From assembly GCA_001938485.1 (NCBI GenBank), contig MQRK01215110.1, positions 1 to 55,611 of the forward strand: a DNA stretch of 55,611 nt. The letters are read 5' to 3'. The notes beneath the pieces are model-generated. The model saw nothing but the letters and a program-made list of their open reading frames with translations, ran no database searches and was not told the origin of the DNA. Source of the DNA: Girardia tigrina (taxonomy: Eukaryota). The stretch's first letter is position 1. Every line of letters begins with the position of its first letter. Below are positions 19,078 through 55,413 of this stretch, in pieces. A program made the translations under genes and the position numbers.

Positions 19078-20428
19078 TGAGGAGTGTCCCAAGAAATCAC
19101 GAACTGAGAGAATAGGGTATGGTCACGAGTGTGCGTGACTGTAACGCGCGATGTGTGTATGATGACATGAGGGAGGAACCAACCTATTGTAATTGATGTG
19201 AACTCTCATTGGCTGCCCGTCGGCATGTGTGTGACTTACGAATGCATTAATTTGTCATTTTTCTCTCTTGTAGTTAGTTTGGAAGAGGCAGTGAAATCTC
19301 AACGAGCAATCATCTATTTCCTAAAACACTCCCACTGCAGATATTGTGCACCATTTATACCGTGTCTTTAGTGATGCCGCTATGGGAAGAACGACTGTCT
19401 TTAAGTGGGTGCAACGATTCCAGGCAGGGTGTCAATCATTGCAGGATGATTAACGTAGTGGGCAACCAACAACGTCAGGATGTCAAAAAAATGTGAAAGT
19501 TATCGAGGAAGTCATTCTTGGTGACAGATGTCTCACTATCCGTGAGATAGAAGCTATTACATGTGTTTCTAAAAGTCAGGTGCACCGCATCATGTTAGAG
19601 GAACTGCATATGAGAAAACTGACTGCCAGGTGGGTGCCGTGCCTCCTCAACAACGACCAGAAGGCTAATCAAAAGTCTGCTTGTCAAGAACTCCTGCAAC
19701 TGGTTCATGATCTCGGTGAAGGTTCTGTTCTCGCGTTTGTGACAGTGGATGAAACGTGGCTCCCGTTTTATCTTCCTGAAACCAAGTACCAGTCCCGTCA
19801 ATGGTGCCGCCCAGATGACAGACCCCTTTAAAGGCGAAGACCGTCCCTTCAGCCGGGAAGGTAATGGTTACAGTCTTTTGGGACTGTGGTGGGATAATTC
19901 ACATTGATTACCTGCCAAAGGGGGTCACCATCAACAGCGCATACTACACGAACCTGCTCGACAAAGATCTGCGCAAAGTTCTCGAGAACAAACAGCGGGG
20001 AAAGTTTTCATACATCCCATTATTGCAACAGGACAACGCACGTCACCATACAGCGAAGTTGACTGTCAGTACCGTGTAACGATTGGGCTGGTCACTTTTG
20101 CCTCACTCCCAATATTCACCGGACCTCGCGGCGAGTGATTATCACCTTTTCTCGGCATTGAAGAAACCCCTTCTAGGTCATCATTTCGCGAATTTGGATG
20201 AAATGAAAACAGCAGTTAGTGCGTGGATTGCGGAGACACAGCGTATTTTCTTCAATAATGATATTAGGAAGTTGACACAGAGATGGGAAAAGTGTGTGAA
20301 ACTGAATGATGATTATATTGAAAAGTTCGATAGCGATTCTCATGAGGATTGATCAATTTTGTTAACTGGAATAAACATTTGGAATTTGTTGTTACTTATC
20401 AGTCCGCGAACTTTTGGGACACTCCTCG
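19078..20428 (+). mobile_element. Mariner element (irritans-like), defective DD34D transposase
   Basis: TIRs TGAGGAGTGTCCCAA / TTGGGACACTCCTCG with TA on both sides. Motifs ARWVPCLL, VTVDETW, QQDNAR and YSPDLAASDY, with in-frame stops. Confidence 0.95.
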
Positions 20429-20837: not shown

Positions 20838-22281
20838 TTAGGTCATCAAGTATGACATTCTTAGGCATGATTTCTTTGCTAAGTTCTTTTTTCTTGATTG
20901 CCACATTTCTTGGCTGTTGAACGCATCAATAAAAATAATTAAAATTATTGATAACTTGTTTTTAATAATCAGTATTTTAAAAAATGGAATGGTAGAAATT
21001 TGAACTATTATGAAGTACGAATTCCTACGTAGAACCTCAACATCAGAAACAATGCTAAACATCAATAGTGTATTTGGATAAAATGCTGCCATGCAGAAGA
21101 CATTCTCAAATTCGTTCAGAAAATTTGTAAAAGGTTATTTCAACTCAGAAGTCAACGGTGAAAAGTTCAACAAAATCAAATCGAAAATCACACAAACATT
21201 TTCTCAAAAATCCATCCGAAGTATTTCGATTCCTCGCTCAACTTCGACCTACCACGACAAATCTTTGTCGTCGGCGTACCGATAGAGAATGAGCGCCCCT
21301 CGCAGCACGAATCCAACAACACTTTGCTGACTTTCTTCTATAATCGCATCGAATTCAACGGAATGACTCAATTGCCCGTTTCTAACAGCAACCACGAATC
21401 GATTGAGCTGCAGAGCTTCCACAAATTCCTACCCGATGGACATCACTTCGTCAATGGCGTCACCGATAATAAATTGAAGTTTTGCGAAGCGTGCAATCAA
21501 GCGCTGATCGCGATTGGCTCGGACAATTCTGCGTCAAGAACGCCAAGTTCCATTGTCAGAACAGCCAATTGTCGATCAAAATGTTTATCTCGGATCGATC
21601 GGCCCGGCGATCGAATGAACCGACAATCGCGTCGCTCATGGTAATATCCGGGACAAATCTGGTTAATAGATGCCACTTGGTGCTTGATTCGCGCTATTCT
21701 TCAGCACTTGGTATCTATAGTGTGGCAATCGGATTGGAGAAAAAAGCCAATCACAGCGAGTTACTTGTTCGAATCATTTTGTCACATTTTTTATTTTAAA
21801 AAGAAATGTTTGCCTTTTATGAAAATGTTAAACTTTTATGATTAAATTTTTTTGCTCTGGATCGCAATTTTGCCGAATTAAATAAATTTTCGATGGTTTC
21901 AATTTATGATTATTGATTGCTCATAAATAAAAATTATAATGCGGAAACTCATAGAAAAACAACCGTGTTTAGTAAACATTTCGACTCTCATCTTGCACCA
22001 CGACAATGTCAAACCACATACTGCACTTAAGACCACGACAAAACAGGAACTTGAATTGTAACGTCTGAATCATCCTTCATACCCACCAGACCTACCACCA
22101 ACTGACTACCATTTCTTCCTCAATTTCAAGAACGTTTTAATAGGAAAAAAGATCAGTTCTGTAGATGCTTCCAGAAATTTATAGATTTTCACCTACCAAA
22201 TCTTTATTCAAATGGTATCAAATTATCAATAAATTATCAATTAACTTTAACTTTAGTTTTACAAATTTCATACTTGACAAT
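20838..22281 (+). mobile_element. Decayed mariner whose centre is replaced by foreign sequence
   Basis: Transposase N-terminus (MKYEFLRRTSTSETMLNINSVFG) to ~21150 and C-terminus (LHHDNVKPHT, HPSYPPDLPPTDYHFF) from ~21930. Partial TIR core TCAAGTATGA / TCATACTTGA. Confidence 0.75.
21324..21570 (+). pseudogene. C1 (DAG/phorbol-ester-binding)-like domain fragment inside mariner
   Basis: HHFVNGVTDNKLKFCEAC fits H-x12-C-x2-C. A frameshifted continuation (GQFCVKNAKFHCQ) partly fits the second half. GC content is higher than the flanks. Confidence 0.45.
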
Positions 22282-23519: not shown

Positions 23520-24803
23520 TTGGGTTGGCCAAAAAGTATTGCGTTTTTGAGTACGTCGTAATAAAAAGCTTGAAAACATAAAACGATGTGATAAAATGTA
23601 AATTCAATTATATATTCTGAAACCTTAATTTTCAGACTATGTTTATACAAAATATTAATTGATTTTGTTTTGATTTATTACTTTACCGTCAATTCGAAAT
23701 GGAAAATCAAAATGAGCGTATTCGTCATGTTTTGCTGCATTATTTTCGCAAATGGAAAACCGCTGTGCAAGCTCATAAGAAGATATGTTTTGTATATGGT
23801 AGTGACTCCTTAAAACTTCGACATTGTCAATACTGGTTTTCTAAATTTCGTTCTGAGAAATTTCATTTGAAAGATACACCACGCTCCGGTCGACCAGTTG
23901 AAGTTTATGGCGCCAAAATAACCGCACTGATCAAATCTAATCCACATATAACGACAAGAGAAGTTGCAGAGACTCTGGAAATATCACAATCGTGTGTTGG
24001 AAGTTATTTAAAGAAACTTGGATTCGTCAGTAAACTCGATATGTGGTTACCACATGAACTGAAAGAAATTCCTTTGGTGAAACGTATAGACATTTGCGAT
24101 TCCCTTTTGAAGTGAGAACAAAGTGATCCATTTTTGAAGCGCTTGATTACGAGTGACGAAAAATGGATTGTTTACAACAATGTGGAACGCCGACGATCAT
24201 GGACAAAGCGTGGTGAGCCTGCCAAAACGATCCCAAAAGCAGAAATTCACCAAAAGAAGGTTATGCTTTTAGTCTGGTGGGATTTTAAAGGAATTGTGTT
24301 TTTTGAACTCCTTCCGAGGAATGAAATCATCAATTCAGACAGATATTGTGGTCAGCTGGAGAAATTGGCTCATTCAATTCAACAGTAACGTCCTGAATTG
24401 GCAAATCAAAAAGGAGTTGTAATTCAGCATGATAACGCAAGACCACATACAAGTTTGACCACTCTCCAGAAACTCTTATCACTGGGTTGGGAGGTTTTGC
24501 CGCACCCACCGTATTCTCCAGACTTGGCCCCATCGGATTTTCACTTATTTAGTTCACTGCAGAATTCCTTAAACAGAAAAAAACATTCGCCAGTTATGAC
24601 GACATCAAATCCTTCCTAGACGGCTTTTTTGCTGATAAAGGCAAAGGTTTTTATGAATCAGGAATAATGAAGCTACCGGAAAGGTGGAAGAAAGTGATTG
24701 AAAATAATGGACAGTATATCGTGTAAAAATATTTGTGCATCCATTTCATTTTTTGATAATAAATATTTTAGTAAAACGCGCAATGACTTTTTGGCTAACC
24801 CAA
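23520..24803 (+). mobile_element. Mariner element (mellifera-like), defective transposase 23699-24726
   Basis: TIRs TTGGGTTGGCCAAAAAGT / ACTTTTTGGCTAACCCAA with TA flanks. Motifs WLPHEL, ITSDEKW, QHDNARPH and YSPDLAPSDF, with two stops and a frameshift. Confidence 0.97.
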
Positions 24804-25547: not shown

Positions 25548-26742
25548 TTAGGGGTACCCAAATGTTATGTCGTTTTTTTGATATATTTTTCTAAATCGTT
25601 TAACTGCCGCCTACATTATTTTGACTCTACCATTTTTATTTATTAATTTCAGTTAGTGTATTAACTTTGATTTGTGCCTATTTTTAGATAAAATGTCATA
25701 TGTTTTTATTGATGAAATAGACAAATTGGATGAGTCACATTTGCGTCATTGTATACTTTTTCAATTTGACCGCGGTTTAAAGGTAACAGAGGCCACCTAT
25801 GGTATAAATAAAGTATATCCGAAATCTCTGACTGTGCGCAAATGTCAGCGATGGTTTGCCAAATTCAAGGGAGGCAAGAAAGATTTAGAAGATGATTCCA
25901 AAAATGGCCGACCGTCACATTTCGATGAGAAACAATTATTGGCTATAGTTGAGGAGGATCCAACTCAATCCATTGAGGAAATATCGTGCAGATTGGGAGC
26001 TACCTGGTCTACAGTTCAGCGTCATCTTAAAGTTATTGGAAAAGTTCAGAGAGCGGGAAAATGGGTTCCNNNNNNNNNNNNNNNNNNNNNNNNNNNNNNN
26101 NNNNNNNNNNNNNNNNNNNNNNNNNNNNNNNNNNNNNNNNNNNNNNNNNNNNNNNNNNNNNNNNNNNAGAAATGGGTTCTCTATGAGAATCCCTGTATGA
26201 AAAAACAATGGTTATCAGTAGGTGCATCCCCTACACACACACACCTAAGCCTAATCTCCATGGGAAAAAAGTTCTTTTGTGCATTTCGTGGAATCACAGA
26301 GGAATTATCCACCATGAATTGAGACGCAATGACTACTAAATGCCCGGGATTGCTCAATAGAAATCGCGTTATCCTACAGCATGATAACGCTAGACCACAT
26401 GCTGCAAAGAAAACACAGCAAAAATTGAAAGAATTGGGANNNNNNNNNNNNNNNNNNNNNNNNNNNNNNNNNNNNNNNNNNNNNNNNNNNNNNNNNNNNN
26501 NNNNNNNNNNNNNNNNNNNNNNNNNNNNNNNNNNNNNNNNNNNNNNNNNNNNNNNNNNNNNNNNNNNNNNNNNNNNNNNNNNNNNNNNNNNNNNNNNNNN
26601 NNNNNNNNNNNNNNNNNNNNNNNNNNNNNNNNGTCATCGATTGCGATGGGGACTATTTTTCTGATTAAATAAATGTTTTATATGGTTTTATTTTTGTTTC
26701 TAAAAATCAATAAAAAACGACATAACATTTGGGTACCCCTAA
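25548..26742 (+). mobile_element. Mariner element, internally deleted
   Basis: Perfect ~31-bp TIRs TTAGGGGTACCCAAATGTTATGTCGTTTTTT with TA flanks. HTH region, GKWV, EKWVLY and QHDNARPH motifs. Confidence 0.95.
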
Positions 26743-31650: not shown

Positions 31651-32761
31651 ACTGTAAATTTAGAGTCATCGTTAACTTTATCTCTATTTCTGCATTTTTT
31701 ATTGTGATAGAGAATCAAGCTATTAGTAGTAAGACTTTTAGTTCTGAGAAGACAATTTGTTTCTCCAATGCACAAGGATTCACACTTGTGACATTTAAAT
31801 TTATATACTAGATTAGCTTAGACACCTGATGGAGTTTTTGATTTATTTTAATATTGAAAATAAATAAAAAAAGATTCATTGTGTAATAGTCACAAGTGGA
31901 AATCCCCTCTCATTTTTTTAGAAAAAACAAAAAGACAATTTAACGAAAGAACTCTTAATGGTTATCTTCTTCTGTCCCTCTAAAACATATATGTGGTCCT
32001 CCTCTCGAGAAGTTTATATAATGCAGTATATGTAATATATTATAAATATTTTTGTGTCTCATTAACTTTAATTATTGTGTTAACTCTAACAATTATTATA
32101 ATTGTTATATTATAATATATGCTTATTAGTTATTTAATCCAATTGTAAATATATCTAAAAATATTATAAAAGAAAACGGATTTCTAAGTGAATGAAAGTG
32201 AAAAAGTCTTCAGTTAACATTTGCCATCGCGTTTGCTTTGATGACTTCAATCAGGTTTTGTTTTGTCCCATTATCGAATCTCGGAAAATTCCATTAGGCC
32301 AAATTGTTTTAGTACATTTTAATATGATATAAGACGATGAATATTAAAAAGTAATAAATATACAAATATAAATTTCGGAAAAATAAAACGATTATCATTA
32401 TCAACAAAATGATAAACGATTTGAAGTCAGTCGAATTTATCTTTCGTCTTTGTTTAAATTTGCTTTGAAAACATTTTGATTGAGCGTTTGAAAACGAAAT
32501 TTGCGGTACTCAAATATTTTCTTTTTAACTAATTTTTCCCTACATCCGACATTTAATGTTGTCTCATTTATTCTCAAAATGTATAATTTGTATTCGATGA
32601 TATATGTAATTAGTATTTATACACATTTTACAATTTTAATAAAATGTATTTTCCTTATGATGAACAAGTCACGAAAATGTATTAGTCTTAGTACAGCTTG
32701 AAGTGTTTCATATTCTTTATTTCCAAAAATGGTAGAGCGATTCCATCTTCAAAATTATAAG

Positions 32762-34752
32762 TGTTGGGTATTAAATTATCTTTAATTTAAATATTATTTT
32801 TTAAATATAAATCTTTATTCTTTAAACTTTAATCTGAAATCTTTAATCTGACTCCAATTAATCAGAAAGGACTTCCAACATAAATATATGAATAAATGAA
32901 CACAAAATTCTTTTTCCAAATATTTTATTTTTCAATAACACAAAATAGCACACAGCTTTATATTGTTCAATTCAATAGTATCAATAATGGATATTCACAA
33001 ATGGATATTCGAGTTTATCAGATCACAGCTTATTTATTTTCAAACTCTAAATCTTCTAAACCAGAGGTTCCCAAACTTTTTTGGCCTACCGCCCCCTTTC
33101 CAGAAAAATATTACTTAGCGCCCCCTGAAAATTAATTTCGAGGAAAATTAATTAATAAAATTAAATTAATTAAATAAATTAGAAATTAATAAAAATATTT
33201 TTGAATCAACTTAGAGAAAGTAGATCGGTATCAGCAGTGATGAGCAATGATATTTTTAAGAAAGGGCTCGCTCTTATTTTTTCTCGGGAATTGTATGAAC
33301 TAGTACTCTAGCAATGTGTCACTGCGACTGACATAAAAAAACAAAATAATGTTAATTAAATGGTTTATTTTATAGAAAAAACAACAATATTATATGAAAG
33401 CATTTATTGAACTTAGAATAGAATGTATTGCCTACATTTTTTCTTTGGTTGAGTCATTATTATCTGTAAAAAAAGAATATTTTTATGGAGGTATTTTTAA
33501 TAATATATTTTTAGTAAATTTTAGAAATATTTTTGTAAAAAACAAATTAAGTTGAGCCATTATTATCTGTAAAAAAAATTCTTATGGAGGTATTTAATAA
33601 AATAATTAAATTTTTTTATTTAATAATATTTTTTTAGTAATTTTTTGAAATATTTGTGTAAAAAACTAACTGAAATAAATAGTGATGAAATAAATAAACA
33701 TGATATTATTAATTGTAAAGCGTATGTAATTATTACAAAATAAATGAATAATACTCACCAATTATAGTCACANNNNNNNNNNNNNNNNNNNNNNNNNNNN
33801 NNNNNNNNNNNNNNNNNNNNNNNNNNNNAATATATCAATTAAATAAAAATTTCCTGGCGGTTGTGAGATAATAAATTTATTTCACGTTTCAATTCACCAC
33901 CTAACTATTATTATTCAAACAAAATCACTATTATCACACAGAAACAATTATTATATAGCCTAATGTTTTTTTTAATTTTGGAACCAAAACTTTACTTGTT
34001 TTAAAATTTTTTTTATTCAAATTTTTTTAACTTTAATTAATTAATTTATTCTTTTTCGATTTTATTCCATTTTATTTCCAATGTATTCATTTCCATTTNN
34101 NNNNNNNNNNNNNNNNNNNNNNNNNNNNNNNNNNNNNNNNNNNNNNNNTTATTCTTTTTCGATTTTATTCCATTTTATTTCCAATGTATTCATTTCCATT
34201 TTAATCCCTAACAATCACATAAATCAATTTTTCTAAATCTTCTCTTCTTTCTTTTATACTATCACCGTCCCCTTACAGATATTCATCGCCCCCAAATGCC
34301 GTCTGTGGCCATCACCGTCCCCCTGGATTGCTGCAGCGCCCACTTTGGGAACCACTGTTCTAAACGAACGATAACCGTAAACAATTGAAAGTTATAATGA
34401 TCTACTTCTCCTATACAGGATACTATCGATCAGAACTTTCAATAGAGGAATATTAATCGAATAAAATAAAAAAAATAAAAATAAACTTTACGATTCTTCC
34501 TTCTTGTAGTTTTAGATTAGAAATTTTTGGGCAAACTAAACTAAATTTGCTGCTGTTTATAGTGTTTTTCATCAGCCTTGAAAACTGATAGAAGAAAACA
34601 AAGACTAAAATATTTTTAATTTTCAATTCCAAATTTTGATAAACTAAATATTATTTTGTTTGAAATTAATAATTTTGCCGAAAGAATTATTTTAAATTTT
34701 TTTACATAAAATTTTATCAAAAGTGTTCATAAGTATTTTCGAAACCCTAACA
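32762..34752 (-). repeat. 3' LTR, interrupted by a hAT non-autonomous element
   Basis: Direct repeat of 40373-41062 once 33062-34365 is removed. Confidence 0.95.
33062..34357. mobile_element. Non-autonomous hAT (Charlie/Buster-type) element
   Basis: TIRs CAGAGGTTCCCAAA / TTTGGGAACCACTG. 8-bp TSD TTCTAAAC at 33054-33061 and 34358-34365, present only once in the sister LTR. Confidence 0.95.
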
Positions 34753-34800
34753 GATCTCTCCCCAATAGAAAATATCGTCCTCGATATTTAGACGACAGTC
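34753..34800 (-). promoter_or_regulatory. Polypurine tract plus conserved upstream hairpin
   Basis: Minus strand GGGGAGAGA lies just before the 3' LTR. The same ~48-nt block occurs before the LTR at 52293. Confidence 0.85.
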
Positions 34801-35465
34801 AAATATAATAATGATATTATGAATAATAGGCAACCATTATATCTCTTTCAAAACATAAAAGTTAAAAAAATAAGACTTTCCAAATGGCATAAATTAATAA
34901 AAACGTTATAACCGTTAAAGCAACAAAGAAAAATTCTGATCGTCCATTAAAACAAAAATAATTAATTTATTTTTCAAAGAAAATATTAAATAACAATCAT
35001 AATTTCAAACGCAATATTCCTAGTTAACTTTATTTTAAACAAATTCTTCTTCCCGAAATCGGCAAGAGGTCTTTCAAACATGCAAGAAGCCGATTTTATC
35101 ATTAACATAAATAAATATTAATTATATTAATTATAAATCTTTGTCTTTTGATCATCTGTTAAATTTAATGTATTATACTTATAATTGTAGTTATAACTGT
35201 CTTAAAAAAATATATTATTATTATCGACGAAATTATTATTGATGACAAGACAATTATTATTATAATTGTCTTTAAGATAATTTGATATTTAGATTACCAA
35301 TTTTCCTCCCAGAAATTGATATATAATCATCAACAATTATTGCAATAATTGCAATAATTTATTTTATTATTCCATTTCCGTAATTGATATTTTATTATTC
35401 ATTTTTTTAATTTTTATTTTTGATTTTTTAGTTTAGCAATAAAAAGCGCCACTCAGATCCACCCG

Positions 35466-35610
35466 AACGCAATGGAAACGACAAGAATCGATGGTCCCTC
35501 TCGACACACTAGTGGGCAAATAGTCAACCTAATGTGTCGAAACAAAGAGAGTTTGCTAGCTGTGTTAGAAGCGTTTATTCACGATCCATTATTACAATGG
35601 GTCCCCCACG
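35466..35610 (+). pseudogene. TOR: TOR kinase-domain C-terminal fragment inside the LTR element
   Basis: NAMETTRIDGPSRHTSGQIVNLMCRNKESLLAVLEAFIHDPLLQW matches the TOR signature NAMEVTGLDGNYR...HKDSVMAVLEAFVYDPLLNW. No other TOR sequence was seen in the window. Confidence 0.8.
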
Positions 35611-35984
35611 ACGACGCCAAGAAAGGCGGAGACAACACCATAGAAAATCCGCTTACTAATCAAGAGACAACAGTCGATCTTAGAAAAGCTTTGAGATTAG
35701 GTATTCGACCATTTAATGTTCCAGCGCCACCAACAACAACACACTCAAACACGTCTCGAAATCCTAATTGCAGGCCGTCTTCTGGAAATTTATATATTTT
35801 ATTTTATAAGTCATTTTTTTTGTTTTGATTTTTTTATATAATATTAAATAATAATAATGATAATAATAATTTATATAATAATTTAAATAATATTCATAAA
35901 TAAAATAATAATATTAATAATAATAATATTACTAATATTAATAATAATAATATATATATTTTTTATCAACACCTATCCCGCCAA

Positions 35985-37676
35985 GTTTGACCAAAAAATA
36001 TAAATTTTCCCCATATTCTTTTCATTGTATTCATAGTGGCTCTTTGAAAATGATCTATACTCAAAAAATTGTCATAGTTTACTTTTCCTACTCCGTAAGG
36101 TAAAAGGGTATCAATGATTTCATTCATAACTCTTTCTTTTTTAGAAGGAAATAAGAGATTACGTCTTGAATCTTCAAATTTCTTCTAGTGAATAAATACA
36201 AATTGTTGACATCTGATCTAAAGACGTAAAATTTATTAAATATTCTAATTTTGTTAAATCCAATTTTTCGATGCCTTTAACTTCTTTATTATTTGGTAAT
36301 AAAATCCACATTTCTGGTGTTAATGGATATAAAGGTGCTGTTATCTCATTAAATCGTAATTTTCTAGGTATTGTTCCATTTTCCACCAAAATTCGTGTTA
36401 TAGGTTCTACAAATCTTAATTCACCTTTATAGCTAACTGGAAGTTCATTTGTACACTCATTATGTTTTATTATTTGAATTGATATTTCTTTACATTTATA
36501 GCTATATAATGCTTCGGCCATAATTCGTCCAAATACACCTTTTTCAGCAACTAGTATTGGAGCGACTAAATTAGGATTTGTTACAACTAAAGCGATTCGA
36601 TTTTGTAATATTTCACGATTCAATTTACAATCATTTAATATAAGCTCACGATATAAATTTTCCACTGTTGATTGATGAAAATGAAATGTAAAATCCATTT
36701 TATTGCTCAAATAATGTAATAATTTTATATCAGCATTATGTACAACTGTAGCATCGGGTATCCTTTCTTGAGAAACATATAGACCCTTATAATTTGTTGA
36801 ATACATTGGTTTTCCACAACGGTTTTCTTTTTCTTTTCGAATAAATCTCATTCCATCTGCTGAAAGAGATGACATTAAAACTGTTGCTAAATTCCTTTTT
36901 TGAACTGGTACTGTTTTTCGAGCTTGATACTTCTTTGGTTTTAACCTATCTGGTCTTTCTTGTATTTGAATACATTGAGCTTCAATAAATTCTGCTGATT
37001 TAAGAAATGCTAAATTACAATCTTTATAATTAACTGAGTATAATAATACAGATTCTCCTGTCTGACAGCTTTTAGTTCGATAATTACAAAATGGATGAGA
37101 CTGTAATTTCCCAGTAACATCATCAAAAATACCATCAAATTCTCTCAATTCTCTTTGATATTATTCTGATATGATAATTTTATCTAGTATTTTATTTCCT
37201 AATTTTACAGATTCTCCTTTACATTCTCCATCCGGATTCATTACTTCTTTCCGAAATACAGATTCTCTTGTAATATATCCAACTTTGGCAGTCAATGTTA
37301 AAGTGGAATCAATTTTTAGTTGTTTCGTTTGGAATGCTGCTTTACAATTTTCTGGTAAGATTTCAACTGGTCTCGGTATAGCATCTATTTTAATAAGAGA
37401 AGAGTGACTCCATCTTCCACAAGGAAAAACATAAGTTGCACGTTTTACTATACACTCTCGTACTTTTGCTCTTCTAAATCCTGATTCTTGATACAAATGA
37501 TATAAAACATTTTTCTCTTCTTTAATTTGAAATGGATAAGCTTCAGCACATTCCACGACATTCATTAATGAATATATTTTTCTCACTTCTGTTTGTGAAC
37601 AATCATTCGCTACTAAAGACATCGTTGGAGATACACATAAGAATAAAATCATAATTAATGATAACCACCACATTCT
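35985..37676 (-). pseudogene. Chuvirus-like (class III fusion) envelope glycoprotein, one stop, one frameshift, truncated at the TM region
   Basis: Signal peptide MWWLSLIMILFLCVSPTMS then LVANDC, ECIVKRATYVFPCGRWSHSS, YLSNKMDF...LYRELILNDCKLNREILQN, AEALYSYKC, CTNELPVSYKGELRFVEPITRIL. After a frameshift it reads LLFPSKKE...IWGKFIFFGQ. These follow the motif order of chuvirus G proteins. Confidence 0.85.
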
Positions 37677-37899
37677 CGAATTATATATGGATTTTTTACT
37701 ATTATCAATTTTGTTATCTTTCAAAGATTCGTCTTTTAATACTTTATTTCGAAACTTTTTACTTCTTTTTGATACACTTCTACTTATTAAATTACCATTT
37801 GTATCTACATCTGGAATATTTTGAAACTGCAACATATTTTCTTCCTTTTTAATTTCAACGTTTTGTAAATCATCAGTAAATTCGTTAAAATCATTCGTA

Positions 37900-38615
37900 T
37901 CGTAAAATTCTTCAATATAATAAACTGTTATATTATTAATTTCTTTTTCATAACATCTATAATCATATAGATAATTTTCATCTAGTAATTCTAAATCCGA
38001 AAGAAATAAAAGTAATGTTCCTTCAATTTTAAACATTTCTTTAACTTTTTGTCTTTTTTACTTTAATTGTCCACACTTCAGCAGTATTAATTGTACCTTT
38101 TCCTGGAACGTCTATTGCTAGAAATAATCTTTGAATATCTTTATTTTTCTGTCTATTATATTGTCCAAATTTTATTAAAATTTCTTGTATTTCTTTTTTA
38201 AACATCGTTTCTTGCTTTAATTTATATATTAATACTGATCTAAGATTATTTATAACATTATCATTAATGTTTAACATTTCTATTTCTTTAATTATATTCT
38301 TTAACTTTTCTTCATTGACTTCATTTTTTAATCTCAATGTCAAATCTTTAATATAATTTTCAGATACATTCATTTTATTATGATTATTTTCTAACATTAT
38401 AATATCAACAGTATTAATGTTGTTTGGTAATATTCCATAATCCACTAAATAATCTTCTAATTCTAATTCAAAACATTTAAAATTCATAATAAATTTATCA
38501 TTTCCAATCTTTTGTACAAGTATTTCCTTCAAATGTTTAACTTTTTTAAGATGATCAATTTGAATTACTGTAAATTACTGTAAATAAGTCCATCAATAGT
38601 TATAAAAATCTGAAG
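37900..38615 (-). pseudogene. Two tandem ubiquitin-like domains (frameshifted)
   Basis: QIFITIDG/FTVIQIDHLKKVKHLKEIL...ELELEDYLVDYGILPNNINTVDII and LFLAIDVPG...TIKVKK/KVKEMFKIEGTLLLFLSDLELLDENYLYDY show the ubiquitin pattern QIFV..TV..VK.KI..L.F.G..LED..TL.DY.I. Confidence 0.65.
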
Positions 38616-39139
38616 ATTATCTGTCATAGGCATTTTTCTCAATTGTTCTCCTAAATATTTCAAAAATGTTTTCATTTCCCTATTCATCGTTTTATTATAC
38701 TCTAAATAATTCACTACCAACTTTATAAAATGTTCAGTTTTATCATTTTGTAAATTTAATATGATAATTTCTTTAATATTTTTGCTTATTTTAACATTTA
38801 AATCTTTATTCATTTCCATTTCGTTTATTAATCTACTCATATCTATTCTCGATTTATCTAACTTAACATCATCAATTTTATCAGAAACACTTTGAACTTT
38901 ACTTTCAACTTTACTGTTATTTTCATTTTGTTTAAATTTATTTTTACTTTCATCTTTTGATGTTGATAGCATTTGTACACTTGGATCAGTTTTATTAATT
39001 CTTGCGGATATTCTATCAAATTGTGTTCTTAATTCGTTAAAGTCTGTTTCATAGAATCATTGGAACCTTCATCTTCAGATGACAAGCAGTTTATATCGGA
39101 TTGATTATCTTTGAATTTAATTTTCTTCTTCAAGATTGA

Positions 39140-40243
39140 TGGTGATGGTATTTGCGTATTTGATCTACATGATCTGGCAATATGACCATATTTTTTACAT
39201 TTTTCACACTGTATTTGACCTTCACTGTTAAGTTTGGCTCCCTGTGGAGAAGGAGTTAAAGATCTATTTCTAGTATATCTGTTCTACATCTATTAGCTAG
39301 ATGACCTCTTTTTCCACATTTGTAACATGTTTTAGTAGATGAATTTCGATTATTATTTGTATTATTTTTGAACCAACATTGATTACTGACATGACCAATT
39401 TTGTTACAATTATAACATTGAGGTTTTCTTGTATAATTATTTGACTCTCTGGTGTCATTAAATCTCATTGATCTTGAAAAATTTGGACTTCTCGAATAAT
39501 TTGGGCTTTGATTATTGTTATGTCTACCATTAAAATATTGATTTTGTTTTGGATTTTCATTTTGTGGTCTGTATCTTTGCATTTTTGGAGATACATAACT
39601 TTGAAAATCTTCGTCTGAATCACTGTTGTTTGAATATATCTTCTGTTTAGGTCTTTCTATCGGTTTTAATTCAGTTACACATACTGGTCGAATAGGAGCT
39701 GCAGTAGTATTCATTTCTATTTTCATAGCCTTTTTNNNNNNNNNNNNNATAATTTGTATAGTCAACAAAACAAAGTGCTGTTCTTATGTTATTTTGAACT
39801 CCAGCCCAAAACTGATCTTCAACTATCTTTTTTGTTTGTTCTGTCCAATTTCTCTTTTCTCCAAACGCTTTTTCTGAAAGTGTGGATAAATGAAAAGCGA
39901 ATTCACCAACTGATTCATCCGCATTTTGAATTTGGGAATAAAACTTTTCCCGTATGATTCTACCAACATCACCACTTATTAATTTTTCAGCCATTAAATC
40001 TTTCATATTTGCCCAAGTTTCAACTCCATTTTTATCAATTTGAGTAAAAACTTCTCTAACTGCACCTTTTAAATATAATGGTAATCTTTGAATCATTATT
40101 TTTTCGGCCCATCCATATGCTGTAGCAAACATAAAATATTCTGTCATAAAATCTACGAACTCTACGGGATCTCTCCCATATTGATTTACAGGTAACTTTT
40201 GACAACTCATAAAATCTATATTATTCTCTCTATTTTCTGCCAT
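39140..40243 (-). pseudogene. gag: Gag (capsid plus three CCHC zinc knuckles)
   Basis: FATAYGW, LPLYLKGAVREVF and QNADESVGEFAFHLSTL are retrotransposon gag motifs. Knuckles are CYNCNKIGHVSNQC, CYKCGKRGHLANRC and (frameshifted) CEKCKKYGHIARSC. Confidence 0.92.
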
Positions 40244-40345: not shown

Positions 40346-40362
40346 GCACAGAGGGCTCACCA
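40346..40362 (-). promoter_or_regulatory. Putative primer-binding site
   Basis: TGGTGAGCCCTCTGTGC begins 10 nt inside the 5' LTR end. Cognate tRNA not identified. Confidence 0.6.
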
Positions 40363-40372
40363 AATATATTTA

Positions 40373-41062
40373 TGTTGGGTATTAAATTATCTTTAATTTA
40401 AATATTATTTTTTAAATATAAATCTTTATTCTTTAAACTTTAATCTGAAATCTTTAATCTGACTCCAATTAATCAGAAAGGACTTCCAACATAAATATAT
40501 AAATGAGTGAACACAAAATTCTTTTTCCAAATACTTTATTTTTCAATAACACAAAATAGCACACAGCTTTATATTGTTCAATTCAATAGTATCAATAGAC
40601 GTATTCACAAACGGATATTCGATGCGAGTTTATTAGATCACAGTTTGTTTATTTTCAAACTCTAAATCTTCTAAACGAACGATAACCGTAACAATTGAAA
40701 GTTATAATGATCTACTTCTCCTATACAGGATACTATCGATCAGAACTTTCAATAGAAGAATATTAATCGAATAAAATAAAAAAAATAAAAATAAACTTTA
40801 CGATTCTTCCTTCTTGTAGTTTTAGATTAGAAATTTTTGGGCAAACTAAACTAAATTTGCTGCTGTTTATAGTGTTTTTCATCAGCCTTGAAAACTGATA
40901 GAATAAAACAAAGACTAAAATAGTTTTAATTTTCAATTCCAAATTTTGATAAACTATATATTATTTTGTTTGAAATTAATAATTTTGTCAAAAGAATTAT
41001 TTTAAATTTTTTTACATAAAATTTTATCAAAAGTGTTCATAAGTATTTTCGAAACCCTAACA
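40373..41062 (-). repeat. 5' LTR (690 bp)
   Basis: Minus strand TGTTAGGG...ACCCAACA, with a TATA-like CTATAAA and AATAAA motifs. Confidence 0.95.
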
Positions 41063-41476
41063 TAAGTTCCGAAAAGTTTCAGGTGCAAGAAAATAACATG
41101 ACTTTTCTGTTTGGTTGTAGACATAAAACGTGATTAGAAAAGCCGGATGAAGTCTCGTTGTTACCGTAACTTTAGCAAAATATGAAATAAGTAATAATGA
41201 AATTTGTTAATAAATATAGTTGTTAAGTCGTATATTTAGTGGTATTTATATTATATATATTGCTAGTTTGGAAAAAAATTAGATTTATATTATTTGAATA
41301 AATATTTCATAAAGCTCTTTTTAAAACATTGTTAATATACAAAATGTTTCAATCTGCATTGATCATCATCAACTAAATGAATGAACCGAAATTTTCATAA
41401 GGAATTTGTTGAACAAATGATGATTTCCCTGTTTAGTCTGTTACTAAACAGGTTTAAATTAAATTAAAACAAAAGG

Positions 41477-41790
41477 TTTAAATTTGAGAGCATTTCGCCA
41501 CAAATACTTCTAATCATTCGCTTTACCAGGTTCAACTACGGAATCATAAACGCCAGCTATCCTGAGGGAAACTTCGGAAGGATACAGCTACTAGATGGTT
41601 CGATTAGTCTTTCGCCCCTATACTCATGTCCGACGATCGATTTGCACGTCAGAACCGCGGCGGTCCTCCATCAGAGTTTCCTCTGACTTCAACCTGCACA
41701 AGCATAGTTCACCATCTTTCGGGTCTTTACACGATCGCTCAAACTCCGCCCAGATGCGAACACCATCAGACGGATGAACTCGCAATGCAA
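41477..41790 (-). pseudogene. 28S (LSU) rRNA gene fragment
   Basis: Reverse complement of the conserved LSU core: GCTATCCTGAGGGAAACTTCGG, GCTACTAGATGGTTCGATTAGTCTTTCGCCCCTATAC and GCATAGTTCACCATCTTTCGGGTC. Isolated, ~300 bp. Confidence 0.93.
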
Positions 41791-42763: not shown

Positions 42764-44025
42764 TTAAGTTGGTCGAAAAATAATGGCGGTTTTTGAGCTT
42801 TATACTTTGTTTATCTACTTTGATATGTATATAAGTTTAAATGCATTAGTGTTAGATATTATTTGAAATCTTATGCCTAGCTGTATATTCATATAGACAT
42901 TATTAACATATTGCTGTTATTTTTTAGAATATTTACGGTGCTAAATTAATAATGGAAAAAATTAAAATTCGAGCAATTTTCTTGTACGAATATAAACTGG
43001 GTTGTAAAGCAGCAGAAACGGCTCGCAATATCAATAAAGCGTTTGGCAAGGGAACAGCTTCTGAGCGCACAGTGCGACGATGGTTCCGAAAATTTTCTGA
43101 TGGAGATGAAAACCTTGAAGATGAAGAAGGTCGTAGTCGTCCTGTTTCTGTGAACAACGACAATTTGAGGACAATGGTGGAAACAAATCCCCGTACAACA
43201 ATCAGAGAACTTGCAGATGGGTTGGGCATTAGTCATTCAACAGTCCTGGATCATTTAAAACAACTTNNNNNNNNNNNNNNNNNNNNNNNNNNNNNNNNNN
43301 NNNNNNNNNNNNNNNNCTATGAAATTTGTTCTGCCAATCATCTTCGCAATAAAAACGATCCATTTCTTGATCGAATTGTTACCTGTGATGAGAAATGGAT
43401 CCTGTATGATAACCGACGTCGATCTGCACAGTGGTCGGACAAAGATGAAGTACCGAAACACTTTCCAAAACCGAAACTAACACTCCGTAAGGTTAGGGTG
43501 ACAGTTTGGTGGTGTGCCACTGGAATCATCCACTATAGTTTCTTGAATCCAGGTGAAACAATCATAGCGGAGAGGTAATGTCATGAAATTGATGAAATGC
43601 ATAAAAAATTGAAAACCCTTTTTCCGGGATTGGTCAATCGAAAAAGTGCCATCCTTCTTCATGATAACGCTAGACCACATATTTCAAAAGTGACTCTTCA
43701 AAAGCTTAATGAGTTGGGCTATGAAACCCTGCTTCATCCACCATATTCACCAGACCTCTCGCCAACGGACTTCTACTTTTTCAGGCATTTGTACAANNNN
43801 NNNNNNNNNNNNNNNNNNNNNNNNNNNNNNNNNNNNNNNNNNNNNNNNNNNNNNNNNNNNNNNNNNNNNNNNNNNTGCTGATGGAATAAAACAACTTGTT
43901 TCTCGTTGGCAAAAATGTATTGATGCCGACGGTTCATACTTTGATTAATAAACTTTTGTTTCTGTGAATTTGCACGTCTTTGAAGTTTGTGTCCAAAAAC
44001 CGCCATTATTTTTCGACCAACCTAA
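42764..44025 (+). mobile_element. Mariner element (cecropia/Hsmar1-like), transposase 42952-43948 with a premature stop
   Basis: TIRs TTAAGTTGGTCGAAAAATAATGGCGGTTTT / AAAACCGCCATTATTTTTCGACCAACCTAA with TA flanks. Motifs IVTCDEKW, LHDNARPH, YSPDLSPTDF and GSYFD*. Confidence 0.97.
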
Positions 44026-44027
44026 TA

Positions 44028-45300
44028 TAATCCCATGTTTCTTCAAATTCTCTATTATTTACTGTATCTTCCCTTCAAAATGCATTGTTTGACGTCGAGC
44101 TGGTACTACAATAGGTGGCCCTTCAGTGATGATATGGTGTTTCAAAATATCAGTCTTTCCTATGTCCCATTTACTAGCCATAAATAAAGTCCCATATTTC
44201 AAAATAAGTTTAGATAATGGATGTTTTCAGGTAATATTTGTTTCGATATTAAGATTTTTCTTCTAGTATCATATGTTATTTCTGAAAACTTCCCTTCTAA
44301 ATTACATATCCTACCCAGTGTTTCAGTACCATATAACGCTATGAGTTTCACTCCAATTTTTTCCAAAATATCGACTCCAATTATTACTTCGGGAATTATT
44401 TCATTAGCAACGAACACCACGTGATTTACTTCCAATCTTCGATATTTTATTTTTAATGTGCATTGTCCTAATATTTGCAAAGGAAATTCGAGTTGATTTA
44501 TTCTCTTTTATAAAACCTTTAATTAATTTCAAAATTTCGGCACTGATCACACTAATCTTTGCTCCTGTATCAAAAAGACATTCGCAATCTACGTTATTCA
44601 AAGTTATTCTTCCAAAAGGTCTCATGTCACTATCATTTCCTTCTATAATGTTATGTTCTCCTATTTCCATTAATCTCATTACGTCAGTATCAAGTTTGTT
44701 GACAATTCCTAATCTTATTTCATCTACACCTAATTTCTTATACACAGTTGACTGTTCAACTTCTTGTTCAATACTAAACAGTTATCTTGAAATTCAGTAG
44801 GTTCTTTTGATATAACTCTATTATAAGATTTTTCTTTATTATCAGTCGCACAATTTCCATTCTTTAAAATACTATATTCATTAAATTCATTATTATTAAC
44901 TTTATTATTGTATTTATCATCGTAAATATTTGTATCATTATTAACATTATCATCAAGTGTGTTAAAAAATGTTTTATTAATATTAAATTTATTATTAAAT
45001 GTATTATTATAATTATTTGTATCATTATTAACATTATCATTAATTGTATAAAAAACATTTTTATTATTATCAATCAAAAAAATTTCATTCGGCAACATGC
45101 AATATGCATTAACGTTCTGTTCTGTAAGCCTTCCAAAAGCATCACATTCATTACTAATATCACAATCAGTCATCCTCTCGTCATACTTTAGTACACAGTC
45201 ATACATATTATTTACATTACAATTATCCTTATTCACACATTCGGCTTTTAAAGATCGACTATCATTTACAACATCACTTACTGCGTCTGAATAGCTGCGA
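44028..45300 (-). pseudogene. Gypsy pol N-terminal remnant (Asn-rich linker, protease, start of RT)
   Basis: CLFDTGAKISVIS and VIIGVDILEK (protease), then DIGKTDILKHHIITEGPPI (pre-RT). Ends at the mariner. The linker has a duplicated 29-aa unit (DNVNNDTN). Confidence 0.85.
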
Positions 45301-49578: not shown

Positions 49579-49595
49579 GTAAGAGGTTTCAATAA

Positions 49596-52500
49596 TGTTG
49601 GGATTCCGAAAAATATAAATTAAATTTTTAAATCTAATAAAAAATTTAAAATAAATCGTTGGTTAAAATTAATAATTTTTTGATTATTATAATAGTATTT
49701 TAATAAAATTTACAAAATATTTGTAAATATTTTGAGATTTGTTTTAGTTATTCAATTGTCAAGGTTAGGTAAAACTAGTATATAAGCAATAGTTATTTCA
49801 GTTACCGACGCCCATTTGATCACTCGAAGAAAATTAATTTCAAAATTTTATGCGTGGTAAACTTGTTTGTTTTCTATTATTGTTATTTTTTTAACTAATG
49901 AATTAATAGAAAGTTTTAAGTATCCTGTAATATAAGAATAGTAAAAGAAAATCAGATCAGTCAAATGTTGAAGAAATTAAACAGAAACAAAGTTGTTCAA
50001 AAATTGATGATTTAAAATTGGATAAACATAGAATTAGTATAAATCGATTATCAAATCAAATAGATTTAAATAAAGAAGGTGCTAAGAAAGTATATAATTA
50101 TGCAGCAAAGATTGCAGGAATGGAAGTTACTATAGAGAAAACTGCAAATTTATTAAAACTGTTATCAAATTATTTACATGATAATGACAATTCAAAAAAT
50201 AAAATAGTTTTTGATGAAAAATCTTGGAAAAGAATTAAGACAGATTTTAATATTTGAAAAACTTGAAATTATGATTAATAGTTGCGGAAGAGAAGTTACT
50301 ACGGTAGATTTATCACCTCAGAGTAAGGTTAATGATTTAAGAGTTGATAATAAATAAAATGGAAGTTGAAAATTTTATTTTGATCTTTAACAATCAAGTA
50401 TTGGAACATGATGAATATTTAATAGATTATGGTATATTACCTTCGTATATTAATAATGTGGAAGTTAAAATACAAGAAGTTTGATATTGAAAAGAAATAT
50501 GAATTAGAAACTGAAATGCGTATAAAAGACGTTGCACTAAGATTAATTAATGAATTTAAATGTGATTATCTTGATTATGAATATATTATTAGTTTATTAA
50601 ATGAAATTGATACGTTTACGGTATCCGAAAGATTAATTCATTTAATTAAACCTTTGTTGGTAGCTCAAATACACAAAAATACAAAATTTTGTTCTAACAT
50701 TATGGATCTTCTAAAGAAATTTTCGAAATATCTTCGTAAAGAAAATTTAAATGTATCAAAAATATTTTTAGCATTAAATATGCCTGACAATAGTATTGTT
50801 CATGTAGCTGAACATTGGTGTATTAAAGTTAAAAAACTTAGAGAAAAAGTAAAACGAATACTAGACAACTCTGGAACAATTAAATTATTTTACAGAAATC
50901 AAGAATTAGAAGATGAGGATTACGTTTATGATTATGGTATTTTAGATGGTGAAATAAATCAAATTCAAGTGATTTTCATGAGAGAATATATTAATGATTA
51001 TGATAAAAATTTTATGGATAATAATGTTATGAGGAATACTAAGGGAATCATACCAATGATCACCGAAAATGAAATAAAATGTGAACCAGAAGTACCTCTG
51101 GAGAGTATTGATGATGAGGAAATTGGTAATAATATGAAAAGAGAAAGTATTTGTGAAATCCAAGAACCATTGACTCCAAGAATTGATAAATCATTTTTAC
51201 AAAAAGATATGAAAAGTATCGATAATATTAATAATGATAAGACAAAACATGTACTTGTATATAAAAAAACTTGTATATAAAAAAAATCAAATAAAAATAA
51301 AACAAAAAAAATATAACTTACAGTTTCAAAGAAATTCATCGATTTGAGTCAATCAAAAATGTCATTACTGTTTGATATTACCATTATTATAATTATATAT
51401 CTATGTATATAAAAAAAAATAATTTACAAAATATTGTGGAAAATAAATTGTGAGTCCATGTGGAAAATAAATATAATGGAATATTTGATAATATAAATAA
51501 CAATCGATAATTATAAAGACAATTGTATAAAAAATTGCCTTTTGTAATAGAGCGAGTGTCCACATTTGTTTTGATGGAGTCGACATCAATTAGTATGAGC
51601 CATTTTTATAGCTCATTATCCTTCTAATAATGAGTCTCGAGTTGACATAAATATGTATATAAATATAAATACAATAGATTACTTTAAGAAACATATTACA
51701 GATATTTTGTAATGATTTTAAGAATTTGAAATTGTTAATAAATATAAGAAATTTTATATAAAATTGACACATTATATTCCAAAATTTCCTTCGGTTAAGA
51801 AAATTAATGCAAACAACAAAATTTTATTTCAGAAGTTTGAAATGATTTGTGAACAACATACACTTCTTTTCTCAAAATCAGTTAAAATGTTGTGTTGGGA
51901 AATATCAGGAAGTACATTGAGTTGCTTTATTGTTTAAAACATTTTATTGTATGTTTTGAAAGACTTTCTTTTCAGTAAACATGTAAACACAAGAGAATTT
52001 TTATATTTATATTTATATTTATTTTTATATTTATATTTTATATTTATAAATTTTAAATATTTTATTTTTGGTGATTTATATATTTATTTATCTATATATT
52101 TATTTTTTAAAGATGGCAGAAATTCATGATTTTTTTTCACGGGGATTTGTTTTTAACAGTAAAACGTTTTGGAAAATCTCTTTTAACTTTTATATTTTGA
52201 AAAAGTGTAATGCTTACTTACCAATATTAATACCAATATTTTTGACTATCGTCTAAATATCGAGGACGATATTTTTTTATTGGGGAGAGATTTGTTAGGG
52301 TTTGGAAAAAGCATATGAACACTTCTTGATAGAATTTTATATAAGTAAAAATCTAAAATAATTCTTTTAGTAAAATTATTAATTTCAAATAAAATAATAT
52401 TTAGTTTAACAAAACTTGGAATTAAAAATTATAAATGTTTGTTTTACTTCATCAAAAATTATAAATATCTTAGTTTTTGTTTTATCTCATCAATTTCAAG

Positions 52501-53079
52501 GCTGAGGAAAATTACTATATAAACAAATCAAATCTAGTTTTAGTTTGCCCAAAAATACTTGCAAGAAATCTAACTAAGAGGAGTCGTGTTAACAAGTAAC
52601 GTGAAAGCTTATTTTATTTTTTCATTTTATTCTTTTAAAAAATATTGTTAAACCATAAGTACCCGTATGGGAGAAGAAGGTTTAACTTAAAATCTTTGAG
52701 TTTTAATCAAATTATCGTTCGACTTTGGAGATTCACAGTTTTTACTGTAATCTGTTAACTCGCACAAAATATTGATTGTGTTTGTATTCTGTCATCCAAA
52801 ATTGAATTATTATTATTATTATTGACTTGTTAATTTTGTTATTTGAAATAAAGTTTCATAAAAGAATTTGTGTTCATTATTCATATATTTATGTTGGAAG
52901 TCCCTTCTGATTAATTGGAGTCAGATCAAAGATTAAAAATTATTGATTAAGAATTATTGATTAAAGGTTATTGATAAAAGAATAAAAAAATAGAGATTTT
53001 CGATCAAAGATGAAGATTTAAGATTTGTGTTTAAAAAGTGAATATTGAGATTAAAGATAATTTTTAATAAAACCCAACA
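49596..53079 (+). mobile_element. Deleted second member of the Gag-Ubl-glycoprotein family
   Basis: Partial diverged LTR from 49596, ORF pieces homologous to 37900-38900, the same PPT block, and 3' LTR 52293-53079 (TGTTAGGG...ACCCAACA). Confidence 0.8.
50257..51280 (+). pseudogene. Tandem ubiquitin-like domain region
   Basis: LEIMINSCGREVTTVDLSPQSKVNDLR...FNNQVLEHDEYLIDYGILPSYINNVEV and IFLALNMPD...IKVKKLREKVKRILDNSGTIKLFYRNQELEDEDYVYDYGILDGEINQIQV. Confidence 0.7.
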
Positions 53080-54479: not shown

Positions 54480-55413
54480 AAAGAATATTTTGACTCAGTC
54501 CATCAACTAGGCCACTACGGAATCCATACCACATATAATATGCTACACTTAGAGGTTTGTTGGCCTGGTATGAGAAATGATATAAAAAATTGGGTTAAAG
54601 ATTGCAAAGAATGCAACCTAAATAAAATCACACAACACCCAAAACTAAAGAAAATCAATTTTGAAAGCTGCGATAAACTCGAAGTTATTCATTTAGATAT
54701 TGTCGGTCCACTTCCAACAAATAAGAACAAGAAATACCTAATAACTATAATTAATAGAAATACAGGATGGTTCGAAGTAACCCCAACAAAAGAAATAACA
54801 GTGGAAAAAATATCTAAAATCGTCGACGAACAATGGATTACGAGATACGGACCACCAAAGAAAATTATAACCGACCAAGGACCACAATTTGAATCAGAGA
54901 TTTTCAAAAAAACTATGCAAAAGAAACTCAATAACAAAAGCGAGAACAACAACTTACAACCCCCAGTGTAACGGCAAAATCGAAAGATTCCACCGAACTC
55001 TGAAAGAAACTTTAAATACTTTCTGCAACGATCAAAACTGGTTAGAAAATCTCAACAAAACATTGCTCGGTGTAAGACTGAAAACAAAAAGTAACTCAAC
55101 CGAATCACCACTCATGAAATTAACAGGCAAAAGCCATTTCAAAATAACCGACAAAGAAGAATCAACACCAATCTTCAAGGAAATCAAAACTACCGAAAAC
55201 ATCGAAGCCTACGTTAAAAAACCTTTCACAAGGAATTTCGAAAATAAATTCGAAGGACCTTATCTCGTCAAACTATTAACTAATAACACTGCACTTCTTG
55301 ATATCAATGGAAAAGACAAATACGTAAATTTAAGACGCATTAAACTAATCCAACAAAACAATAACAATCACTTTCCAGACACGAACAAACATGACAAAAA
55401 CAGCAAAAAATGA
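54480..55413 (+). pseudogene. Gypsy integrase (one frameshift)
   Basis: H..GHYG, WPGM, CKEC, IHLDIVGPLP, IITDQGPQFES, YNPQCNGKIERFHRTLK and KFEGPY. Confidence 0.93.

Follow-up and report, generated by a model that had tools for sequence, protein, structure and literature searches.

Introduction

Flatworm errantiviruses have a GAG-ENV-POL layout and an envelope protein of the HSV/gB type (Chary and Hayashi, PMC13524379). Two of them, Smed_errantivirus_1 and Smed_errantivirus_2, carry gag before a gB/chuvirus-type env, as does the element that we describe here, and in the sections of the same report that concern the six S. mediterranea elements, no tRNA primer is assigned to them (PMC13524379). 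The planarian Burro/GYPSM1 elements, as far as they are set out in PMC6431247, likewise share with our element a Retrotrans_gag domain followed by three CCHC knuckles. Burro further possesses a Ubi2/SUMO-like (PF11976) domain and an env that lies in frame between gag and pol, and its family is known for host-derived domains (PMC6431247). More generally, the capture of host genes by LTR elements is a known kind of event, in which an antisense orientation of the cargo appears to be less usual, judging from the part of PMC7264820 that deals with such sequences.

Here we describe an LTR element of Girardia tigrina that holds a decayed fragment of the host's TOR kinase gene in antisense orientation, between its env gene and its polypurine tract (PPT). 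It lies in a stretch of 55,611 nucleotides (contig MQRK01215110.1), which was analysed in full and which we call the window in the following. We take the locus, in the best reading of its sequence, to be a Burro-like flatworm errantivirus of the GAG-ENV-POL layout and the Ty3/gypsy type, in a copy that has suffered a deletion and is non-autonomous. Our searches of the open literature brought up no earlier case of TOR as the cargo of an LTR element. The window itself is a draft sequence, rich in AT and dense in repeats, that has 14 N gaps, and a search against Rfam returned 0 matches. The relatives of its TOR and env sequences would by themselves point to a triclad planarian as the probable host.

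Results

The element and its boundaries

A single LTR element on the minus strand encloses the TOR piece. Its 5' LTR (40373..41062, 690 bp, TG...CA) aligns to the two halves of the 3' LTR at 677 matching positions, with 14 mismatches and 4 gap events; the LTRs thus differ at 14 of 691 aligned sites, a divergence of ~1% per copy, which is to be read with the caveat that gene conversion or short-read collapse, in a window with 14 N gaps, can inflate LTR identity. The 3' LTR is split into a first part (34358..34752; 388 matches, 6 mismatches, 1 gap) and a second part (32762..33061; 289 matches, 8 mismatches, 3 gaps) by a secondary DNA transposon of 1.3 kb (33062..34357), which has short terminal inverted repeats and an 8-bp duplication (TTCTAAAC) and is presumably hAT-like. 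The target-site duplication TAAG is found on both flanks of the element, at 32758..32761 on the left and at 41063..41066 on the right. Given the matching LTRs and this 4-bp duplication, everything between the LTRs belongs to one insertion, the size of which is ~7 kb without the secondary transposon.

The interior is read from the minus strand. A putative PBS-like TGG motif, identified by sequence inspection, is located 10 nt internal to the 5' LTR (40351..40362). It is followed by gag (39160..40243), with a Retrotrans_gag domain (PF03732, E 5e-4) and the three CCHC knuckles (PF00098, E 4e-11 and 2e-4), interrupted by a 13-nt N gap and one frame change. The spacer between gag and env consists of ORF pieces in three frames (37674..39056) and includes two repeats (about 38392-38544 and 37869-38075) that we label ubiquitin-like, a weak label with PF11976 at E 0.034, the UHRF1 UBL at E 0.008 and atlas scores <0.9. 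The BCL2, BIR, MATH and ankyrin domains of Burro were not found in any of the element's ORF pieces, nor does the element reach giant size. Beyond the spacer lie env (35987..37673), a low-complexity tract, the TOR piece, an AT-rich 3' non-coding region (34764..35436) and the PPT (34755..34763).

A second, more divergent related element is present on the plus strand of the window, at about 49595-53079. It has the same LTR family, spacer ORFs and PPT, the latter being conserved between the two, and it yields no gag, env or TOR match.

The envelope gene and the loss of its anchor and of pol

The env gene encodes a chuvirus-like glycoprotein (G) of the gB type, with a signal peptide and an ectodomain, and matches PF24664 (Monjiviricetes fusion) in three pieces, of which the last ends at profile position 550/653. 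Compared by eye with the env block of Smed_errantivirus_1, as given in the available part of PMC13524379, the env of the window matches 46 of the first 64 residues of that block. A profile-free search with the middle piece returned 610 relatives at E<=0.001, 150 of which were listed; from these, we scanned 16, picked from the top of the list and for length. PF24664 is matched by 15 of the 16, and downstream of env 10 of the 16 encode an aspartyl protease, 5 a reverse transcriptase and 4 an integrase, in agreement with the gene order described for flatworm errantiviruses (PMC13524379) and for Burro (PMC6431247).

It had been claimed that the G frame stops at a terminal FGQ, just where the transmembrane (TM) region should begin. 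This observation is well founded: in the best 30 alignments of the last env piece, wherever the relative is long enough, the FGQ/FG position coincides with the end of the match, and in the relatives a hydrophobic segment follows directly, above the hydropathy cut-off in 24 of the 30. The exact end needs correction, as the frame runs six codons beyond the Q (35987) before it reaches a stop. Fragments of the motif at the TM start can be read in the other two frames to about 35965, although 20-37 of 400 shuffles score as high. We regard this stretch (35965..35986) as a probable out-of-frame remnant of the TM-segment start, and it suggests that the env junction lies inside the TM segment. All of the features described in the first-pass annotation are present; the span annotated there as the anchor replacement (35430..35985) consists mostly of the tract and the TOR piece, plus the ~20 nt of probable remnant.

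The damage extends well beyond the anchor. In two relatives with a full pol, the FGQ point is followed by 1691 and 2155 residues, equivalent to 5.1 and 6.5 kb. Searches with 10 polyproteins found no pol remnant in the element, and its 3' interval had no match at E<0.07; a pol of gypsy order (PR-RT-RH-IN) after env is absent in this copy. This copy thus lacks the TM anchor and all of pol, 5-6.5 kb going by the two measured relatives, and the absence of pol identifies it as a deleted derivative rather than an intact errantivirus.

Upstream of the TM position, the remaining env frame is itself broken: 37161-37163 is an in-frame stop, and the reading frame shifts near 36180. There are four further frame changes between env and the gag start. 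Since the stop sits ~170 codons past the signal-peptide Met and env is separated from gag by these frame changes, no soluble ectodomain could come from this copy. The proposal that any G made here would be soluble and anchorless is therefore moot.

The TOR fragment

Homology to TOR extends from about 35437 to 35789 on the plus strand (~353 nt), opposite to the element, and covers the last part of the kinase C-lobe together with the linker behind it. Among PDB structures, mTOR ranks first (E 4e-9), ahead of SMG1 (1e-5), ATR (0.09) and ATM (0.5). A search for relatives among 130 candidates with lengths of 164-2000 aa retained 15. The highest-ranking named proteins in this set are flatworm TORs, with FRB (PF08771) and FATC, and the top match overall is the flatworm-type TOR P0002, with 72 of 122 residues identical, the variable post-kinase linker included. 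By these matches, the fragment can be assigned to TOR and not to another PIKK, and a best match outside TOR/PIKK, which the first-pass annotation had named as evidence against its reading, did not turn up.

The fragment is no longer intact. It has a stop at 35440-35442, and a deletion of 10 nt near 35466 shifts the frame. Of 42 codons that are invariant in 7 flatworm TORs, 9 have changed (8 of 41 without the deletion codon), whereas genuine flatworm TORs differ at only 0-2 of 40-42 such codons; this divergence is measured against the TORs of other flatworms. Moreover, queries with 4 flatworm TORs revealed no other TOR exons in the 55.6-kb window. On this evidence, we consider the piece a dead pseudo-fragment and not a working exon, and together with the state of env it indicates that this copy would make no useful TOR or Env product today.

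The genomic-type ORFs P0002, P0003, P0004 and P0007 read through the TOR span without a break and appear to enter an intron only further on, as deduced from the points at which they diverge from the spliced proteins P0005, P0006 and P0009. The piece would thus have been cut from inside one exon, and its lack of introns proves nothing about its origin. With a GC3 of 0.355, it is close to a host GPCR gene (0.345) and far from the element (0.13-0.19), a composition that matches a host origin. A horizontal origin is unsupported, its GC3 being equal to that of the one host gene measured. Likewise unsupported is selection on a 118-codon ATG frame within the piece, for which the probability of no stop is 0.39 at 10% decay. 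Among the invariant codons, changes of T>C and of A>G stand at 4:0 (3:0 if the codon on the deletion is left out), and in the comparison with P0002 they stand at 13:7, too few to support ADAR-type hyper-editing of the antisense strand.

The tract and the flanks of the fragment

The AAT/ATT low-complexity tract occupies 35790-35965 at 4% GC, and TRF detects 38 copies of a period of 3 at 35838-35952. Both the AAT-rich tract and a TOR-like fragment on the opposite strand, placed between G and the PPT, were already described in the first-pass annotation, and in these respects our analysis agrees with it. The longest exact match of the tract elsewhere in the window is 21 nt. That it represents a point-mutated TM coding region is unlikely, given its 4% GC versus 28-31% in env; growth by slippage seeded at TM codons is conceivable.

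We compared the 3' regions of the two related elements by local segments, global alignment being unreliable in DNA so rich in AT. The interval 34753-34884 is clearly common to the 3' non-coding region of the second element, and 35247-35300, the one segment among 8 tried that stood out, probably is (its score is reached in 1 of 300 shuffles and in none of 156 control windows), so that family 3' sequence resumes within ~135 nt of the TOR piece. On the other side, the second element matches the TOR-side end of the tract weakly and in collinear order; 11 of 442 GC-matched windows and 46 of 300 shuffles do as well, and this match may be chance between low-complexity tracts. Taken together, these segments suggest that the TOR piece sits within the family's own 3' region.

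The ends of the piece bear no signature of a separate insertion. Neither inverted terminal repeats (95 of 500 shuffles as good) nor a flanking direct repeat (100 of 1000 shuffles as good) around it are significant, and no poly(A) was found after the TOR 3' end. A T-rich look-alike duplication flanking the piece was rejected, its score being equalled by 100 of 1000 shuffles and by 24 of 188 T-rich windows. We likewise dismissed a nested Pack-type DNA transposon and a LINE retrocopy, which here would be devoid of terminal inverted repeats, flanking duplication and poly(A).

The order of the damage

The changes in the TOR piece fit ~10% neutral decay, while the LTR rate of 1% predicts 0.9 changes (P 2e-7). 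Since its decay far exceeds the LTR rate, the piece did not arrive as a fresh TOR copy after this insertion. By contrast, env has just 1 in-frame stop in 557 homology-anchored codons, where 5.6-8.4 would be expected at 10% decay (P 0.024-0.002) and 0.7-1.0 at 1%; this count uses env only, the other pieces having been chosen as open frames and hence being biased. It is therefore likely, on the present sequence, that the TOR piece died first and env later. This order rests on one statistic, the env stop count, and on small numbers, because changes at conserved sites are not significantly different between env (7 of 60) and TOR (9 of 42; Fisher P 0.27), those in env also exceeding the LTR rate (P 2e-4).

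Discussion

How the fragment may have come to lie beside env

We favor a history, at a rough probability of 0.5, in which an ancestral errantivirus had long carried the TOR piece as a passenger in its 3' non-coding region, until a later deletion brought it beside env. The ancestral copy would have taken up, in this region, ~350 nt of internal sequence of a single TOR coding exon, either through repair with a DNA or cDNA patch or through a switch onto packaged mRNA; in our judgement, the odds between these routes are about 55:45, repair being slightly favored by the backwards orientation of the piece. The passenger would then have decayed, with gag and env meanwhile under selection, before a separate deletion removed the region from TM to pol and set the env ectodomain beside the AAT tract and the TOR piece. 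An earlier proposal had the TOR sequence replace the glycoprotein anchor in one event, which agrees neither with the extent of the loss, TM plus all of pol, nor with the finding that TOR has decayed more than env. As for a second copy with the same cargo, the related element in the window carries none, and a protein search at 73-235 aa gave 7 matches among 17 candidates, all of them ordinary TOR pieces of other flatworms.

Two other histories deserve consideration. A possible but rather unlikely one is that a break was repaired after the insertion, whereby the region from TM to pol was deleted and patched with copies of an AAT tract and of a TOR pseudo-fragment that had decayed beforehand, both located elsewhere in the genome, so that the cargo was never mobile. 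Such a repair would need no special account of the backwards orientation, and it would bring together at one junction the deletion, the low-complexity filler and the probable small indels; a single cargo-bearing copy is known, the damage to gag and env is compatible with decay after insertion, and capture of genomic DNA or of reverse-oriented mRNA pieces is documented, within the scope of PMC4516963, in mouse zygotes. Nonetheless, a fresh TOR template is excluded by the 9 of 42 changed codons, against 0.9 expected, which leaves an existing dead TOR donor, presumably a rare class of template, and the collinear match to the second element weakly suggests that the end of the tract is family sequence. 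We are quite doubtful of the other history, a single-step transduction in which the reverse transcriptase would have jumped onto TOR RNA and returned, so that TM and pol were replaced and the pol-less element then spread in trans. In its favor, the two LTRs and the PPT are all retained, the TOR piece is coding sequence free of introns, and captures by animal LTR elements are, in the cases we can draw on from PMC5131818, partial mRNAs that replace part of the ORFs and are mobile as non-autonomous elements. The flatworm ORFs P0018, P0019 and P0021 begin at a codon inside the piece, which may mark an intron in those species, and the decay at conserved sites of env and TOR is, as stated, not significantly different. 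Yet the closest TOR relative has no intron in the span, so that the absence of introns proves nothing; a joint death predicts ~6-8 env stops, of which 1 is present; and transduced sequences, according to the part of PMC7264820 that covers them, usually stand in the element's own sense.

The remaining explanations appear improbable to us. An assembly artefact, by which unrelated reads were joined via the AAT tract, is suggested by the gapped state of the draft, with its 14 N runs, and by a junction that resembles a microsatellite, a kind of sequence common in the window. We see only a slim chance of it: there is no N from 34149 to 39735, matching duplications stand on both sides of the element, the tract shares no exact match longer than 21 nt with the rest of the window, and on its other side the TOR piece is joined to the PPT and to 3' sequence of the family with no tract of this kind in between. 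We would give about the same small credence to a pol-less lineage that has long been anchorless, in which gag and the env ectodomain were kept under selection and which spread in trans together with the antisense TOR piece, as a source of secreted Env and of anti-TOR piRNAs; an ectodomain under selection would explain why there are few stops in env despite the old TOR piece. Lastly, it is next to inconceivable that the fragment is a live TOR exon with the element sitting in a TOR intron, an outcome that the first-pass annotation had named as evidence against its reading. A T-rich stretch ending in AG does precede the piece, and one frame is open across 134 codons, but an open frame of such length survives 10% decay 39% of the time, the GT donor is missing at the 3' end, and the closest relatives have no intron at either end. 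The stop, the 10-nt deletion, the changed invariant residues and the lack of neighboring TOR exons in the 55.6 kb (4 flatworm TOR queries) likewise speak against it.

Possible effects on TOR and significance

It had also been proposed that transcripts of the element contain antisense TOR RNA. This holds insofar as the piece is part of one true insertion, in which it would form part of any transcript that starts in the 5' LTR and reaches the 3' LTR. TOR controls neoblast growth. In simulations of a piece of ~355 nt, a perfect 32-nt stretch was kept in 73% of cases at 10% divergence and in 25% at 15%. If the element were transcribed and fed to the piRNA pathway, it is thus plausible that some guides would be antisense to TOR mRNA, and this passive supply of guides would be the only plausible activity of the element today. 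In planarians, SMEDWI-3 cleaves the targets of near-perfect guides and binds the targets of imperfect ones, as far as this is described in PMC6824462. The cargo would matter more if it were multi-copy and transcribed, since planarian piRNAs act on mRNAs; otherwise the locus would be a fossil with no function attached. Should the improbable pol-less lineage be real, its secreted Env might interfere at the receptor with its own family, and transposon-borne piRNAs might act against TOR mRNA in planarian stem cells. On the history that we prefer, the locus is a clean case of host-gene capture by an envelope-bearing flatworm retroelement, with the raw cargo taken up backwards and left to decay.

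Comparison with known systems

In contrast to the elements described in PMC13524379, which are intact and for which the accessible part of that report mentions no host cargo, the copy in the window is without TM or pol, is frameshifted and holds a piece of a host gene. Burro, by the account in the relevant part of PMC6431247, is more than 30 kb long, and its host-like domains are part of the polyprotein and read in sense, whereas our element measures ~7 kb, has 690-bp LTRs and bears its TOR piece antisense and dead. Capture of mRNA or genomic DNA during break repair, to the extent covered by PMC4516963, likewise yields doubly truncated inserts without a duplication and in either orientation; there it was shown at induced breaks in mouse zygotes, whereas here it is a candidate route.

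Two further systems resemble the locus in its overall arrangement. The metazoan LTR-mediated retrocopies (Tan et al. 2016, PMC5131818) also consist of a partial host coding piece within paired LTRs, in elements that have lost part of their ORFs and are non-autonomous. As far as they are characterized there, they show intron loss and junction microsimilarity, and they are more often transcribed in the parental sense; our piece, in contrast, is antisense to its element and apparently older than the loss of the ORFs. The plant elements Grande, RIRE2 and Retand (PMC7264820) carry additional ORFs, antisense to the element, in the interval from pol to the 3' LTR, and hence in the same position and orientation as the TOR piece. 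These plant ORFs are conserved and, in the part of PMC7264820 that describes them, without a cellular homolog, whereas the piece in the window is a decayed fragment of a host gene.

A second element of the same LTR family

The main element, the minus-strand Burro-like errantivirus copy, is not the only member of its LTR family in the window: a second, which has diverged further, lies on the plus strand (49595-53079; LTR identity 69-79%). Part of its 5' LTR is missing, and no gag, env or pol match was found within 49595-53079. Internally, nothing is left of it but the spacer ORFs with the ubiquitin-like region (49931-51280), 1 kb of 3' sequence and the polypurine tract (PPT). The two elements are independent deletion derivatives, both of which have retained the ubiquitin-like region.

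They also share a short inverted repeat immediately upstream of the PPT, located at 34765-34795 in the main element and conserved at 52250-52280 in the second, which is possibly a cis signal. In the main element, the 5' LTR end is separated from the PBS-like TGG by 10 bases (40363-40372), and these make up an inverted repeat together with an LTR-internal stretch near 40487-40501.

A solo LTR of this family lies on the plus strand (9869-10529), flanked by a CTTA duplication that is identical to that of the main element when read in element orientation. This hints at a target-site preference: two of the three insertions agree, and the third is not a clean match.

Other features of the window

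The 3' LTR of the main element contains a non-autonomous DNA transposon (33062-34357) with 15-bp imperfect terminal inverted repeats, an 8-bp duplication and two internal N gaps. Four further regions (19454-20352, 23663-24619, 25657-26664 and 42928-43948) are, judging by their translation, what we take to be decayed copies of a mariner-like transposase. Fragments of gypsy RT, protease and integrase, outside the main element and unrelated to it, are found at 2569-3147, 44026-44781 and 54480-55139, and two pairs of repeats with 74-80% identity at 8480-9472 and 20890-22221. Pfam yielded nothing for a GC-rich frame of 160 codons (21162-21644). Likewise, Rfam at the gathering threshold yielded nothing for the stretch at about 41520-41720 (minus strand), which resembles a large-subunit rRNA fragment. 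An intact, single-exon gene for a rhodopsin-family GPCR (14019-14951, minus strand; PF00001, E 7e-15) served as the control for host codon usage.

Ubiquitin-like repeats

The gag-env spacer of the main element (37869-38544, minus strand) and the corresponding spacer of the second (50308-51025, plus strand) each encode two ubiquitin-like repeats, with weak matches to PF11976 and the UHRF1 UBL. Among the env relatives scanned for domains, one protein, P0025, has a weak Bcl-2 match directly ahead of env. The weakly matched repeats of both elements may be akin to the Ubi2/SUMO domain of Burro, the giant gypsy-like elements of planarians.
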